This document shows positions 52,719 to 57,704 of a stretch of DNA of 64,000 nucleotides, one piece after another. Each line of letters starts with the position of its first letter. Position 1 is the first letter of the stretch. A program made the translations under genes and the position numbers. The notes under the pieces were generated by a model. The model saw only the letters and a list, made by a program, of their open reading frames with translations, was not told where the DNA came from and did no database searches. This DNA comes from Escherichia coli. GTDB lineage: Bacteria > Pseudomonadota > Gammaproteobacteria > Enterobacterales > Enterobacteriaceae. The stretch lies in NCBI RefSeq assembly GCF_013122565.1, contig NZ_CP053258.1, one strand, 5' to 3'.

Positions 52719-53465
52719 ATGCTAAAAAAGTCACTTTTAATGACAATGCTACCTGCCATTGCCTTCGCAGAGGAACTTCCTGCTCCAGTAAAAGCGATTG
52801 AAAAACAGGGCATTACAATCATCAAAACGTTCGATGCCCCCGGAGGAATGAAAGGTTATCTCGGAAAGTATCAGGATATGGGCGTCACCATCTACCTGAC
52901 TCCAGATGGTAAGCACGCTATCTCTGGTTACATGTACAACGAGAAAGGTGAAAACCTGAGTAACACACTTATCGAAAAAGAAATTTACGCACCAGCCGGA
53001 CGCGAAATGTGGCAACGGATGGAACAATCCCACTGGCTCCTCGACGGTAAAAAAGACGCGCCGGTCATTGTCTACGTCTTCGCCGATCCGTTCTGCCCAT
53101 ATTGTAAACAGTTCTGGCAGCAGGCGCGCCCGTGGGTAGATTCTGGCAAAGTGCAGTTGAGAACATTGTTGGTTGGGGTTATCAAACCAGAAAGTCCGGC
53201 GACAGCCGCGGCAATTCTTGCCTCCAAAGATCCCGCAAAAACCTGGCAAGAATATGAAGCCTCTGGTGGCAAGCTTAAGCTAAACGTGCCTGCAAACGTA
53301 AGTACAGAGCAAATGAAAGTGTTAAGCGATAACGAGCAACTCATGGACGATCTGGGGGCAAATGTCACACCCGCTATCTATTACATGAGTAAGGAAAATA
53401 CGTTGCAACAAGCCGTGGGGTTGCCCGATCAGAAAACGCTTAATATCATTATGGGAAATAAATAA
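52719..53465 (+). CDS. dsbG: Periplasmic disulfide isomerase DsbG, 248 aa
   Basis: Signal peptide; CPYC thioredoxin-fold active site. Confidence 0.95.
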
Positions 53466-53477
53466 AAGATAATTCAT

Positions 53478-53513
53478 GGATGGTTGAAATATACCCCTGC
53501 TTTTCAACCATCC
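53478..53513 (+). terminator. Stem-loop 12 nt after dsbG stop
   Basis: GGATGGTTGAAA / TTTCAACCATCC perfect 12-bp stem, 12-nt loop; weak T-tract. Confidence 0.45.
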
Positions 53514-53672
53514 TTAAAACGCATGAATTGCTCGCTCTGTGCCAGATGGCTGTGCTATTTTAGAAAAACTTAATCCTGAGTTAAGCAAAAAAACATAATC
53601 AATAAAAATATATACGCAAAAACATTGATTAAGTGAATACTTCATGGAAGAAAAATATAACCGGAGTACTGT

Positions 53673-54575
53673 ATGGCCAATCTCTACGACCTGAAAAAGT
53701 TCGACTTAAATCTTCTTGTCATCTTTGAGTGCATTTATAAACACTTAAGCATAAGCAAGGCTGCTGAGTCATTATATATCACTCCATCAGCAGTGAGTCA
53801 GTCGTTACAACGCTTACGTGCGCAATTTAATGACCCTTTATTCATTCGCTCAGGAAAAGGTATCACGCCAACTACGACAGGGTTAAATTTACACAATCAC
53901 CTTGAGAAAAACCTCAGAGGTCTTGAGCAAACAATCAATCTTGTTAATAAATCGGAAGTAAAGAAAAATTTTATTATCTACGGTCCTCAGCTCATCTCCT
54001 GTTCTCATAACCGCATGCTGATCCGCTGCCTACGGCAAGATACCTCGGTCGAGATTGAGTGCCATGACACACTTATTTCAGCCGAGAATGCTGAAGAACT
54101 GTTGGTTCATCGCAAAGCCGATCTGGTGATCACTCAAATGCCAGTGATCAGTCGTTCCGTCATTTGTATGCCATTGCATACGATTCGTAATACCCTAATT
54201 TGTAGTAATAAACATCCCCGGATTACAGATACCAGTACTTACGAACAAATTATGGAAGAAGAGTTCACCCAATTAATTTCCAAATCATCGGGGCTTGATG
54301 ACATTCAAATGGAAATAGACGAGAGGTTTATAAATCGTAAAATTGCCTTTCGTGGCTCCTCTTTATTGGCGATCATAAATAGCATTGCGATTACAGATTT
54401 GCTAGGAATAGTTCCCTTTGAACTTTATGAATCCCACCAAGAATCTCTTAATTTAAAGGAAATAAAACTAGAGCACCCCCTACCCTTGGTTAAGCTTTAC
54501 ATTTGTTACAACAAGACTTCTCTAAACAACCTGGCATTCTCACGATTCATTGACAGATTGAATGATAATTCTTGA
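53673..54575 (+). CDS. ybdO: LysR-family transcriptional regulator YbdO, 300 aa
   Basis: N-terminal HTH (ISKAAESLYITPSAVSQSLQRLR); AT-rich gene. Confidence 0.85.
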   Translation: MANLYDLKKFDLNLLVIFECIYKHLSISKAAESLYITPSAVSQSLQRLRAQFNDPLFIRSGKGITPTTTGLNLHNHLEKNLRGLEQTINLVNKSEVKKNFIIYGPQLISCSHNRMLIRCLRQDTSVEIECHDTLISAENAEELLVHRKADLVITQMPVISRSVICMPLHTIRNTLICSNKHPRITDTSTYEQIMEEEFTQLISKSSGLDDIQMEIDERFINRKIAFRGSSLLAIINSIAITDLLGIVPFELYESHQESLNLKEIKLEHPLPLVKLYICYNKTSLNNLAFSRFIDRLNDNS

Positions 54576-54720
54576 TATATAGATTCAGAGAGAGGCTACA
54601 TCCTTTCATTTCTATTCATTTCATCAATAAAAAATAAAATACTCTACCTTACAGGACTTACTTTATAATTAACGACCTTATCTCACTGATCACCCTGTAA
54701 CGTTCAGAGAGCGTATTTAG

Positions 54721-55941
54721 ATGTCTATTTATAAAATTCCTCTTCCACTCAATATTCTGGAAGCTGCACGAGAGCGTATTACCTGGACACTCAATACCCT
54801 ACCCCGCGTTTGTGTCTCATTTTCTGGCGGCAAAGACTCTGGTTTAATGCTGCATCTGACAGCCGACCTTGCCCGACAAATGGGCAAAAAAATCTGCGTT
54901 TTGTTTATCGACTGGGAAGCGCAGTTCTCATGCACTATCAACTATGTTCAGTCACTACGCGAGTTTTACGCCGATGTCATCGAAGAGTTTTACTGGGTTG
55001 CGCTCCCGCTTACGACGCAAAATTCCCTTTCACAATACCAACCCGAATGGCAGTGCTGGGAACCTGATGTCGAATGGGTGCGTCAGCCCCCGCAAGATGC
55101 GATAACCGATCCTGACTTTTTCTCCTTTTACCAGCCAGGCATGACCTTCGAACAATTTGTACGTGAGTTTGCCGAATGGTTTTCACAAAAACGTCCGGCG
55201 GCGATGATGATCGGCATCCGTGCGGATGAGTCCTACAATCGTTTTGTCGCCATCGCCAGTTTAAATAAACAACGTTTTGCCGACGATAAACCCTGGACTA
55301 CGGCCGCGCCAGGCGGTCATAGCTGGTACATATACCCCATCTACGACTGGAAAGTCGCCGATATCTGGACCTGGTATGCTAAAAACCAAAGCCTCTGTAA
55401 CCCACTGTATAATCTGATGTATCAGGCAGGTGTCCCTCTGCGTCATATGCGAATTTGCGAACCTTTTGGCCCGGAGCAACGGCAAGGATTATGGCTCTAT
55501 CACGTCATCGAACCGGATCGCTGGGCGGCCATGTGCGCACGAGTCAGCGGAGTAAAAAGTGGCGGCATTTACGCCGGACATGACAACCATTTTTATGGTC
55601 ATCGTAAAATCCTCAAGCCGGAACATTTAGACTGGCAGGAGTATGCATTATTGCTACTCAGCAGCATGCCGGTGAAAACAGCTGAACATTACCGTAATAA
55701 AATCGCCATTTATTTGCACTGGTATCAGAAAAAAGGCATCGAGGTTCCACAAACCCAACAAGGGGACATTGGCGCGAAAGATATCCCCTCCTGGCGGCGA
55801 ATATGCAAAGTTTTACTCAACAACGATTACTGGTGCCGGGCATTATCATTTAGCCCCACAAAAGCGAAGAATTATCAGCGTTATAACGAACGGATAAAAG
55901 GAAAACGTCAGGAATGGGGGATACTATGCAACAACGATTAA
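54721..55941 (+). CDS. ybdN: PP-loop / PAPS-reductase-like protein YbdN, 406 aa
   Basis: N-terminal PP-loop SFSGGKDS; ORF 54721..55941. Confidence 0.85.
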   Translation: MSIYKIPLPLNILEAARERITWTLNTLPRVCVSFSGGKDSGLMLHLTADLARQMGKKICVLFIDWEAQFSCTINYVQSLREFYADVIEEFYWVALPLTTQNSLSQYQPEWQCWEPDVEWVRQPPQDAITDPDFFSFYQPGMTFEQFVREFAEWFSQKRPAAMMIGIRADESYNRFVAIASLNKQRFADDKPWTTAAPGGHSWYIYPIYDWKVADIWTWYAKNQSLCNPLYNLMYQAGVPLRHMRICEPFGPEQRQGLWLYHVIEPDRWAAMCARVSGVKSGGIYAGHDNHFYGHRKILKPEHLDWQEYALLLLSSMPVKTAEHYRNKIAIYLHWYQKKGIEVPQTQQGDIGAKDIPSWRRICKVLLNNDYWCRALSFSPTKAKNYQRYNERIKGKRQEWGILCNND

Positions 55942-56543
55942 CGCAGGATTTAACGCAATTTCTCGCCAGCTTGCCGGAAGACGATCGCATCAAAGCGATT
56001 AATGAAATCCGCATGGCGATCCATCAGGTAAGTCCTTTTCGGGAAGAGCCGGTGGATTGTGTTTTGTGGGTCAAAAATGATCAGCTTGTGCCAAATGATT
56101 ACAACCCAAACAACGTGGCACCGCCCGAGAAAAAATTGCTGAAAAAATCCATTGAAACTGATGGTTTTACCCAACCCATTGTGGTGACCAACACGACAGC
56201 CAATTCACTTGAAATCGTTGATGGTTTTCACCGCCATGAAATCGGTAAAGGATCATCATCATTAAAACTACGCTTAAAAGGTTATTTACCGGTGACCTGC
56301 CTGGAGGGGACGCGTAATCAGCGCATCGCCGCGACTATTCGTCATAATCGCGCTCGTGGACGCCATCAAATCACCGCCATGTCGGAAATCGTCCGTGAAC
56401 TTAGCCTGTTGGGATGGGACGATAATAAAATTGGCAAAGAGCTGGGAATGGACAGCGACGAAGTGCTGCGCCTGAAGCAAATTAACGGCCTGCAAGAGTT
56501 GTTTGCCGACCGTCAATATTCCCGCGCCTGGACTGTCAAATAA
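55914..56543 (+). CDS. ybdM: ParB/sulfiredoxin-like domain protein YbdM, 209 aa
   Basis: DGFHR motif; 28-nt overlap with ybdN. Confidence 0.85.
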   Translation: MGDTMQQRLTQDLTQFLASLPEDDRIKAINEIRMAIHQVSPFREEPVDCVLWVKNDQLVPNDYNPNNVAPPEKKLLKKSIETDGFTQPIVVTNTTANSLEIVDGFHRHEIGKGSSSLKLRLKGYLPVTCLEGTRNQRIAATIRHNRARGRHQITAMSEIVRELSLLGWDDNKIGKELGMDSDEVLRLKQINGLQELFADRQYSRAWTVK

Positions 56544-57704
56544 CTACAGCTGGCGCAGGCGTTCAGCTGCTGCCAGCAACGTCGATTCCTTCTTGGCAAA
56601 ACAGAGACGAATCAGTTTATGTGGGAAGGGATCGGCGCAAAACACCGATAGCGGAATCGCCGCTACGCCGTGCTCCTGCGTCAGCCACTGGCAAAACTCA
56701 ACATCATCCAGGGTAGATACGGCGCTGTAATCCACCAGCAAAAAGTATGTGCCTTCGCACGGTAAAATCTCCAGCCGACTTTCATTTAAGGCGTTAACCA
56801 GAATATCGCGCTTCTGGCGATAAAAGTCCGGTAACGCAAGATAATGCTCAGGTTCTGCACGTAGCATATCGGCAAGCGCCAGCTGTGCCGGGGTATTTAC
56901 CGAAAAGGTCAGATACTGATGTACCTTGCGAATTTCGGCACTGATGGGCGCTGGCGCAACGCAATAACCCACTTTCCAGCCGGTCATATGATAGGTCTTG
57001 CCAAACGATGACACCGCCACCGCCCGCTCACGCAACTGCGGATGCGCCAGCACACTGGCATGGCCCTGTTGTGAAAAGTTGATGTGCTCGTAGACTTCAT
57101 CGCTAATGACAAAAATCTCGTGCCCGGCGATCGCCTGCCACAAAGCGGCGAAATCAGCCTGCTGCCAGACAGTTGCACTGGGGTTATGCGGAGTGTTGAG
57201 GATCACCAGTCGGGTGCGCTCGCTTAACAATGCGGCAAATTCCTGCCAGTCAACGCGAAAATGCGGTGGTTGCAGTGCCATACGCTTCACTATTCCCCCA
57301 GAAAGCGCGATGGCGGGGGCGTAACTGTCATAGCTGGGATCAAAACAAATCACTTCATCGCCATTGCGCACCAATGCGGTAATCGCCGCGTATAACGCCT
57401 CCGTCGCCCCTGCCGTTACGGTGATATCGCTGTCGGCATCCGGTTGATAGCCATACAGACGTTCCGTTTTCTGAGCAATCGCCTCGCGCAAGGCCTGCAC
57501 GCCGCTCATGGGCGCGTATTGGTTTGCCCCCTGGGCAACGTGGTACGCCAGTCGCTCTTGTAAATAGCGCGGACCATCAAAATCAGGAAAGCCTTGCGAA
57601 AGGTTAATCGCCTGGTGTTGCTGCGCCAGCGCGCTCATCTGGGTGAAAATAGTGGTGCCAAGTTGTGGAAGTTTGCTTTGTGGAATCAGAGGGTTATTTG
57701 TCAT
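56544..57704 (-). CDS. ybdL: PLP-dependent methionine aminotransferase YbdL, 386 aa
   Basis: Class I aminotransferase; PLP lysine in SFGKTYHMTGWKVGY. Confidence 0.9.
   Translation of the reverse strand: MTNNPLIPQSKLPQLGTTIFTQMSALAQQHQAINLSQGFPDFDGPRYLQERLAYHVAQGANQYAPMSGVQALREAIAQKTERLYGYQPDADSDITVTAGATEALYAAITALVRNGDEVICFDPSYDSYAPAIALSGGIVKRMALQPPHFRVDWQEFAALLSERTRLVILNTPHNPSATVWQQADFAALWQAIAGHEIFVISDEVYEHINFSQQGHASVLAHPQLRERAVAVSSFGKTYHMTGWKVGYCVAPAPISAEIRKVHQYLTFSVNTPAQLALADMLRAEPEHYLALPDFYRQKRDILVNALNESRLEILPCEGTYFLLVDYSAVSTLDDVEFCQWLTQEHGVAAIPLSVFCADPFPHKLIRLCFAKKESTLLAAAERLRQL

Follow-up and report, generated by a model that had tools for sequence, protein, structure and literature searches.

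What do ybdN and ybdM do, two overlapping genes of unassigned biochemistry that follow the LysR-type regulator gene ybdO in Escherichia coli, and how did such a pair come to sit among housekeeping genes? We address these questions for the copy at positions 53673-56543 of a stretch of 64,000 nucleotides (nt) of E. coli DNA (contig NZ_CP053258.1), the whole of which is referred to here as the window. An original prediction, made from the letters of the window alone, had described a LysR regulator gene followed by overlapping PP-loop and ParB/sulfiredoxin (Srx)-like genes, and the three open reading frames (ORFs), the SGGKDS and DGFHR motifs and the 28-nt overlap are all present there. Its statement that no biochemical function is established for the pair also holds for the full-text literature searched, which extends to mid-2026. 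Our bioinformatics analyses identify ybdN-ybdM as a chromosomally fixed copy of the IbrA/IbrB-family cassette otherwise found on phages, prophages, and plasmids, which is retained with a function in the host and is under purifying selection. As to the nature of that function, we tentatively propose, at somewhat less than even confidence, that ybdNM was domesticated from a mobile element, with YbdM recruiting an adenylating YbdN to DNA. The pair is already known as an object, because publications cover its genes, the name of the family, the repressor, and the link to the silencing protein H-NS.

The first part of the answer lies in YbdN (406 amino acids; ybdN, 54721-55941, plus strand), which joins a phosphoadenosine phosphosulfate (PAPS) reductase-like PP-loop domain (residues 30-234, nt 54808-55422) to a basic helical DUF3440 domain (residues 237-383, nt 55429-55869). 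The predicted PP-loop and PAPS-reductase likeness were confirmed by the presence of SGGKDS at residues 35-40 (nt 54823-54840) in a Rossmann-like alpha/beta domain, and this N-terminal SGGxDS-type loop places the protein in the PAPS-reductase-like branch (PF01507) of the PP-loop ATP pyrophosphatase superfamily. DUF3440 (PF11922) was recognized with E values of 1.6e-22 and 2.2e-6, and its position behind the PP-loop domain is the arrangement of the IbrA family. Relatives in viruses are close: YbdN matched phage families of the PHROG collection at E values of 1e-69 to 1e-86 (PHROG 2302 at 5.7e-76 and PHROG 15645 at 3.3e-86) and is 35.5% identical, over 94% of its length, to a Streptococcus phage protein annotated as IbrA. 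The family as a whole is modest, comprising 215 clusters at 50% identity (E<=1e-30). In an alignment of 51 sequences, with homologues down to 26% identity, residues G37, K38, S40, D64, E66, W113, W119, D214, and Y230 are invariant, and S35, G36, D39, R121, G165, R167, E170, S171, R174, P206, D209, and W210 are near-invariant; these include the PAPS-reductase-type motifs D64/E66, G165-R167-E170-S171-R174, and P206-D209-W210. An intact SGGKDS motif points to ATP cleavage rather than PAPS reduction. The invariance of this motif across phyla argues for real ATP-pyrophosphatase chemistry rather than a scaffold role, and the predicted ATP-pyrophosphatase site is, as judged from the alignment, intact and universally conserved. 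The same alignment contains no conserved cysteine column, the commonest cysteine (40 of the 51 sequences) being an alanine in E. coli, which makes sulfur chemistry of the DndC type unlikely. The two halves of the protein differ in charge, with isoelectric points of 5.0 for the acidic PP-loop half and 9.5 for the basic DUF3440 half. Searches of the PDB with single sequences gave weak matches, so that profile and fold searches were needed; by fold, YbdN is nearest to FAD synthase and CysD, both of which transfer adenylyl groups, and to APS reductase, and no solved structure matched DUF3440.

The second protein, YbdM (209 amino acids; ybdM, 55914-56543, plus strand), comprises an N-terminal helical hairpin (residues 1-40), a ParB/Srx domain (residues ~46-150, nt 56049-56363), and a C-terminal helix-turn-helix (residues ~153-196, nt 56370-56501). 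Its assignment to the ParB/Srx superfamily proved sound, since Box I, a G-x-x-R motif at the position of Box II, and Box III can all be recognized, and the three boxes are conserved among YbdM homologues. DGFHR occupies residues 103-107 (nt 56220-56234), with Phe105 near-invariant in an 11-sequence alignment and the consensus residue in a 77-sequence alignment, and RHNRARG is encoded by nt 56340-56360. In a fold search, the YbdM model matched KorB best, and its C terminus matched helix-turn-helix domains bound to their operators; on the same modeling, its length leaves no room for a C-terminal dimerization domain of the ParB type. RefSeq names YbdM an "IbrB-like domain-containing protein", and it matches PHROG 498 at 1e-11. 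With regard to physiology, YbdM, described by the authors as "completely uncharacterized", rose 29-fold with plasmid pUUH239.2, an effect linked to blaCTX-M-15; its overexpression lowered the growth rate by 10%, and deletion of ybdM alone gave a fitness gain of 1-2% (PMC8764527).

The two genes are tied together both in the window and across the family. In the window, they share nt 55914-55941 (ATGGGGGATACTATGCAACAACGATTAA), in the gene order known from IbrA/IbrB. There are two in-frame ATG codons for ybdM, at 55914 and 55926, the second of which is preceded by GGGGGA and corresponds to the start annotated in Citrobacter (205 amino acids, MQQRL...); the genes overlap with either start, by 28 or 16 nt. 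We further surveyed 164 loci, made up of 79 contigs (one genome per species), 80 IMG/VR viral contigs, and 5 cultured phages, which together span more than 10 phyla as well as phages and viral contigs; the bacterial members belong to Enterobacterales, Bacteroidales, Flavobacteriia, Clostridia, Bacilli, Mollicutes, Alphaproteobacteria, Verrucomicrobia, Helicobacter, Lentisphaeria, and others. In 121 of the 164 loci, the YbdN-family ORF is followed directly by a YbdM-family ORF, and in 15 it is directly preceded by one; in 19 the YbdM-family ORF is elsewhere on the same strand, in 5 it is absent, and a contig end cuts the other 4. The proposed coupling of a functional pair is therefore borne out by adjacency at 136 of the 164 loci and by a partner nearby on the same strand in 19 more, and the genetic coupling of YbdN and YbdM is obligate. 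With ORFs called from the most upstream start codon, a candidate start of the ybdM type lies between -30 and +20 nt of the ybdN-type stop in 117 of the 132 loci with the partner downstream, 42 of which have an ATGA-type 4-nt overlap. Natural fusions of the two proteins were not found among the long homologues, which contained only DUF3440, PAPS_reduct, one ABC domain, and one weak GNAT domain.

Which other genes keep company with the pair? An SNF2-like superfamily 2 helicase gene, sometimes split in two, lies upstream on the same strand, usually immediately so, in 46 of the 164 loci (for example L033 2223-4833, L060 4757-6004, and L004 3758-4996, the last being gp26 of Streptococcus phage CHPC1148). 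This suggests a three-gene phage module of SNF2-like helicase, IbrA, and IbrB, which is not the arrangement at the E. coli locus. IbrB itself is fused to an HNH endonuclease on one viral contig (L124 7271-8275) and to an EctC-like cupin in two loci (L142 7272-8159 and L005 5290-6189, gp104 of mycobacteriophage Gaia), the latter recognized by the ectoine synthase family NF009806 with 131.7 bits against a cut-off of 128. At L028 (4796-5983), where the gene order is reversed, IbrB carries a C-terminal domain of ~170 residues with conserved Cys, His, and Trp, which also occurs as a separate ORF at L142 8092-8577. No confident family could be assigned to the extra C-terminal domain of the IbrB proteins of ~380-400 residues or to a cupin-like upstream ORF. 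Other neighbors encode DnaB, a primosomal protein, NinG, integrase, terminase, and a methyltransferase. In 17 loci, mostly from Bacteroidales, the pair is directly preceded by a conserved ORF of ~135 residues, which occurs in 21 loci in all (L043-L055, L063, L070, L075, L078, and L087; for example L047 5568-5984); it matched no family and fills the slot held elsewhere by the helicase or the LysR gene. In Listeria monocytogenes, the same pair (lmo1309/lmo1310) is listed among core genes (PMC7020466), and the pair of Listeria ilorinensis lies at L066 6001-7836; this may be a second chromosomal fixation, outside the Enterobacteriaceae.

The cassette is also common on plasmids. A YbdN homologue is present in 854 plasmid records, and 702 of these matches are full-length, at ~58% identity; among the matches listed, a ParB-N gene then follows every full-length one. 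The plasmids come from Klebsiella (323), Escherichia (204), Ralstonia (129), Shigella (123), and Salmonella (34), the Shigella plasmids among the matches listed carrying only fragments of the homologue. On the IncFIB plasmid pC16KP0098-2 of Klebsiella pneumoniae (L170 8989-10850), the pair lies directly upstream of iroBCDN, between insertion sequence (IS) remnants, and an E. coli IncF plasmid carries it at L169 8992-10841. Plasmid and prophage copies are ~57-58% identical to YbdN, and the Streptococcus thermophilus phages CHPC877 and D4276 are among the YbdN matches. The DUF3440 clade of viral "CysH" proteins has been counted as an auxiliary metabolic gene of sulfur assimilation (bioRxiv 10.1101/2021.01.05.425418). 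Because this clade has no conserved cysteine and almost always has a ParB-like partner, the viral cysH label is doubtful; the family lacks the catalytic cysteine, and the RefSeq name "phosphoadenosine phosphosulfate reductase" and the viral cysH calls are therefore probably wrong for it.

Within E. coli, on the other hand, the locus is a fixture. It is present in 5422 of 5426 complete genomes, 5317 of which cover at least 80% of it (~2% cover less), and it is syntenic across the Enterobacteriaceae. The allele of the window is rare, matching 9 of the 5422 genomes at 99% identity or more; strain VE-T9 matches it at 99.5% identity across the locus, and the flanking DNA of the window is 97-98% identical to that of K-12-like and uropathogenic E. 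coli (UPEC) genomes. Between alleles, ybdO shows 77-85% nucleotide identity with a synonymous divergence (dS) of 0.8-3.1 and a ratio of nonsynonymous to synonymous divergence (dN/dS) of 0.03-0.07, ybdN shows 93-95% (dS 0.23-0.31), and ybdM shows 91-97% (dS 0.09-0.41), with dN/dS between 0.03 and 0.10 for all three. The flanking genes ahpF, ahpC, ybdL, ybdH, ybdD, and cstA are 96-99.6% identical (dS 0.02-0.18), and dsbG, which adjoins ybdO, is intermediate (95-96%, dS 0.15-0.21). Divergence peaks at 53380-54680, covering the dsbG-ybdO spacer, which is the most divergent DNA, ybdO, and the ybdO-ybdN spacer. This hyperdivergent region fits the H-NS-linked diversification described earlier (PMC4720273). 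A second mosaic patch, at 55980-56280 in ybdM, where the window is 85-89% identical to K-12-like and UPEC alleles that are themselves 97-99% alike, suggests a separate recombination import. In strain ET120 (NZ_CP101001.1; L168 6175-7760), ybdO is cut short by an IS5-family element, and the stretch that runs from ybdO across ybdNM to entF is missing; the locus is thus dispensable in at least this strain. Taken together, the core presence, the allele divergence, and the low dN/dS indicate genes that are old, recombining, and functional, not a variable defense island. The defense-island context considered in the original prediction was not found: the locus occupies one fixed site among housekeeping genes, and PADLOC-DB 2.0 returned only partial, noise-level matches (DndC at 2e-5, BrxP at 2e-4, and MTase_II at 1e-4), so that no known antiphage system can be named here. 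Of the two circumstances that the prediction had set against itself jointly, universal core presence and a defined housekeeping role, the first is seen in these genomes and the second is not.

How, then, is the pair controlled? The gene ybdO (53673-54575, plus strand) encodes a LysR-type repressor of 300 amino acids that scores 456 bits against the NCBIfam family NF047710, CitR (cut-off 400), and is likewise annotated as CitR by RefSeq in matching genomes, with agreeing synteny, so that the predicted LysR regulator now has a name. Among the collected loci, an upstream LysR gene occurs only in the Escherichia-Citrobacter-Enterobacter-Kluyvera group, where it invariably stands between dsbG/ahpCF and ybdL. 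It is published that CitR represses ybdNM and that H-NS silences ybdO (PMC9068703, PMC4720273). By ChIP-exo (immunoprecipitation of chromatin combined with exonuclease digestion), CitR gave a peak upstream of citR-ybdNM and was seen to bind at its own locus only; deletion of citR raised ybdN by 5.5 log2 units (~45-fold) and ybdM by 2.5 log2 units and altered 86 genes, the flagellar and cys regulons going up (the cysteine regulon 4- to 7-fold) and lrhA going down, all without a CitR peak (PMC9068703). That CitR is bound only at its own locus and yet 86 genes shift fits YbdNM as the effector. H-NS binds ybdO and represses it, and the gene had been picked as a case of exceptionally diverse sequence; its transcription start site lies 107 nt upstream, and upstream and downstream H-NS elements have been mapped in K-12, SE11, and SE15 (PMC4720273). 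In E. coli K1, acid pH lifts the H-NS repression of ybdO (PMC9141747). The ybdO studies in K1 and in avian pathogenic E. coli (APEC) make no mention of ybdN or ybdM. The published ybdO phenotypes in K-12, K1, and APEC may be confounded by the ~45-fold derepression of ybdNM that comes with the deletion.

The base composition of the locus is uneven. Upstream lie ahpF, ahpC, and dsbG, and downstream ybdL, ybdH (hcxA), ybdD, and cstA. The G+C fraction is 0.33 in the dsbG-ybdO spacer (53466-53672, plus strand), where homology places both the promoter region of ybdO and the upstream H-NS element, 0.39 in ybdO, 0.32 in the ybdO-ybdN spacer (54576-54720, plus strand), and 0.48 in both ybdN and ybdM, the whole window standing at 0.505. 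On these values, the AT-richness that had been ascribed to the flanking regions holds for ybdO and the two spacers upstream of ybdN and does not extend downstream of ybdM, where there is no spacer because the convergent ybdL begins at 56544. An inverted repeat at 53473-53518, just 3' of the dsbG stop codon, is probably the dsbG terminator. The ybdO-ybdN spacer contains a weak terminator-like hairpin (54590-54607) and a TATAAT (54664-54669), and the ~80 nt that lead up to the ybdN start (54643-54720) are shared by the three E. coli alleles compared, not between genera; a promoter of ybdN's own may lie in this spacer. A promoter and terminator scan did no better than shuffled sequence. No common operator can be read in this spacer, because it differs between genera, and Rfam gave no match at E<=1 in 53300-56800.

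With these elements, a mechanism can be sketched for the tentatively favored reading of ybdNM as a domesticated module that carries an adenylating enzyme to DNA. YbdM would be made with YbdN by coupled translation and would work in complex with it, binding DNA through its C-terminal helix-turn-helix and a nucleotide through the ParB/Srx pocket (DGFHR, RHNRARG). YbdN would act as an active PP-loop ATP pyrophosphatase and would probably adenylylate a group on the nucleic acid presented by YbdM, because its nearest structural relatives, FAD synthase and CysD, move adenosine monophosphate onto a phosphate or sulfate oxygen; the basic DUF3440 domain would hold the nucleic-acid substrate. The outcome might be a covalent non-sulfur mark or a processing step on DNA, which on phages and plasmids would help the DNA of the element to become established or expressed, and in the host would alter how silenced or foreign genes are transcribed, comparable to the action of IbrAB on prophage eib genes. 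The default state in E. coli is off, with H-NS on the AT-rich ybdO region and CitR repressing ybdNM.

Several points weigh against this proposal. ATP use, DNA binding, complex formation, and modification are all inferred, and the full-text literature searched, to mid-2026, yielded no biochemical study of ybdN/ybdM, of IbrA/IbrB, of the DUF3440 family, or of a PAPS reductase combined with ParB. We know of no unexplained mark reported in the intensively studied DNA of E. coli K-12, a weak argument, since silencing keeps the locus off in the laboratory. RNA, a nucleotide, or a protein could just as well be the substrate. The locus contains no parS-like repeat or conserved site, the inverted-repeat search having given only the hairpin behind dsbG. 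Instead of derepression, the higher ybdNM levels of the citR mutant could reflect read-through from the deletion construct, and the broad transcriptome changes come from the citR single mutant.

Other explanations of the pair have to be weighed against the same evidence. It is unlikely, but by no means far-fetched, that the pair forms a purely regulatory nucleoprotein switch without covalent DNA chemistry, in which YbdM is an NTP-gated clamp like KorB or VirB that counters H-NS or recruits RNA polymerase, and YbdN is its partner, as KorA is to KorB, perhaps loading or recycling the nucleotide. The match of YbdM to the CTP-dependent regulator KorB and its helix-turn-helix, the family name, which derives from the co-activation of prophage genes, the location in H-NS-bound DNA, and the broad indirect effects of citR deletion would all suit such a switch. 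It would not, however, account for a PP-loop catalytic motif that is invariant across phyla or for the linked SNF2 helicase, HNH, and cupin domains, which point to DNA processing; YbdM also lacks room for a clamp dimerization domain and carries DGFHR, of the Srx/DndB type, rather than GERRxR. Assignment of YbdM to the partition ParB proteins of ParABS systems was rejected along similar lines, with DGFHR in place of GERR, 15.7 bits against a cut-off of 58 for TIGR00180, no ParA neighbor, and no parS-like repeat. Modification of RNA or tRNA, or the making or consumption of a nucleotide-derived small molecule, with YbdM kinase-like in the manner of SerK, SbnI, and sulfiredoxin and YbdN as the adenylyltransferase, is less probable again, given the conserved helix-turn-helix of YbdM, a gene company centered on DNA (SNF2, HNH, replication, and packaging), and the lack of recurring transporter or biosynthetic neighbors.

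A role in sulfur or redox metabolism, with YbdN as a CysH-like PAPS reductase, as its RefSeq name and the viral cysH calls would have it, and YbdM as a sulfiredoxin for the neighboring peroxiredoxin AhpC, is highly improbable. The catalytic cysteine of CysH is missing from a family without any conserved cysteine, and YbdN scores 33 bits against cut-offs of 254 for TIGR02057 and 154 for PRK02090, so that CysH was rejected; sulfiredoxin was rejected likewise, as the near-invariant Phe105 of YbdM takes the place of the catalytic Cys of GGCHR. Adjacency to ahpCF, moreover, is seen only in the Enterobacteriaceae, whereas the phage pairs adjoin helicases and terminases. No more credit can be given to antiphage defense on the pattern of Dnd, Ssp, or BREX type 4, in which a DndC/BrxP-like enzyme with a DndB-like ParB partner would make DNA phosphorothioates or another self-mark: the pairing of a PP-loop enzyme with a DGxHR ParB protein does recall DndC/DndB (PMC10853773), and the weak PADLOC matches name DndC and BrxP, but YbdN reaches only 22 bits of the 290 required by TIGR03183, and the PADLOC match to DndC covers a partial stretch. 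The comparison with DndC-like proteins that the original prediction had recommended thus ended far below the family cut-off, and YbdN lacks DndC's defining 4Fe-4S cysteines and Cys dyad; no DndA, DndD, DndE, restriction, or PglZ partner lies nearby, the position is fixed among housekeeping genes rather than in a variable island, and most family members are on phages and plasmids. Least credible of all, to the point of being very nearly dismissed, is a toxin-antitoxin pair of a ParB-like antitoxin and a DUF3440 toxin, to which the overlapping two-gene layout on mobile elements, the growth cost of YbdM overexpression (PMC8764527), and a TASmania-based, guilt-by-association listing of Listeria lmo1309/lmo1310 (PMC7020466) could be said to point. 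That listing rests on gene adjacency only; both proteins keep invariant motifs of the enzyme type, the supposed toxin is a 406-residue PP-loop enzyme, and loss of ybdM alone brings a slight fitness gain, not toxicity.

A wider version of the proposal that YbdM targets an adenylating YbdN to DNA deserves mention, even if we consider it rather doubtful. YbdNM/IbrAB would then be an unrecognized machinery for ATP-dependent marking of DNA or adenylylation of DNA ends, composed of a ParB/Srx targeting subunit and a cysteine-free PP-loop adenylyltransferase, often with an SNF2 motor. It would serve phages and plasmids, Klebsiella virulence plasmids among them, in establishing or expressing their own DNA, and in the Enterobacteriaceae it would have been domesticated into an epigenetic switch, normally silenced, for genes acquired horizontally. 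From a broader point of view, ybdNM belongs to the enzyme modules of E. coli K-12 that are still uncharacterized. The pair is core across the Enterobacteriaceae, widespread on phages, and common on clinically important plasmids, lying next to salmochelin genes on Klebsiella virulence plasmids, and it is a defined candidate for a novel chemistry on nucleic acids or a novel gene switch of the ParB type.

How does the pair compare with systems already known? The comparison with IbrA/IbrB that had been suggested for it was fruitful, yielding the same two families, the same gene order, and an overlap: a PAPS_reduct plus DUF3440 protein is followed by an IbrB-like ParB protein, and phage homologues of YbdNM are annotated as IbrA/IbrB. 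IbrA and IbrB, as Sandt and colleagues reportedly found in 2002, together activate prophage eib genes in trans in strain ECOR-9. The differences are that ybdNM, core in E. coli, has a LysR repressor of its own and a fixed place in the chromosome, whereas IbrAB lies on a prophage-like island, and that eib activation is reported for IbrAB, not for YbdNM. The DndC/DndB and SspD/SspE systems likewise combine a PAPS-reductase-like PP-loop enzyme with a DGxHR ParB-superfamily protein that binds DNA and ATP, and DndC carries a 4Fe-4S center on three cysteines together with a distinct Cys dyad (PMC10853773); YbdN, in contrast, has neither, DUF3440 replaces the C terminus of DndC, and the partners DndA, DndD, and DndE are missing from the ybdNM locus. 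BrxP of BREX type 4 also has a PAPS-reductase-like domain without the DndC Cys dyad, in a DNA-directed mobile or defense context (PMC12839542), but it is a protein of ~780 residues that carries DUF4007, a Mog1/PsbP-like domain, and a Cys-rich region and has PglZ, BrxC, and BrxL as its partners, all of these being absent from the ybdNM locus. CysD and eukaryotic FAD synthase align with YbdN over only ~165-180 residues at 18-21% identity; YbdN adds DUF3440 and a ParB partner, and no CysN-like GTPase and no features for binding flavin mononucleotide were seen for it. KorB, with KorA, of RK2 and VirB of Shigella are ParB-family, CTP-dependent transcription regulators that carry GERRxR rather than the DGFHR of YbdM, whose partner is an enzyme, not a small repressor. 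Finally, the ParB-domain DNA methyltransferases of phages and plasmids also couple a ParB N-domain to a DNA-modifying enzyme, often near terminase, and in Arthrobacter phage LiSara, genes for ParB, PAPS reductase, ParB, methyltransferase, and terminase follow one another; the enzyme of ybdNM, on the other hand, is a separate PP-loop ATPase polypeptide and not a methyltransferase dependent on S-adenosylmethionine.

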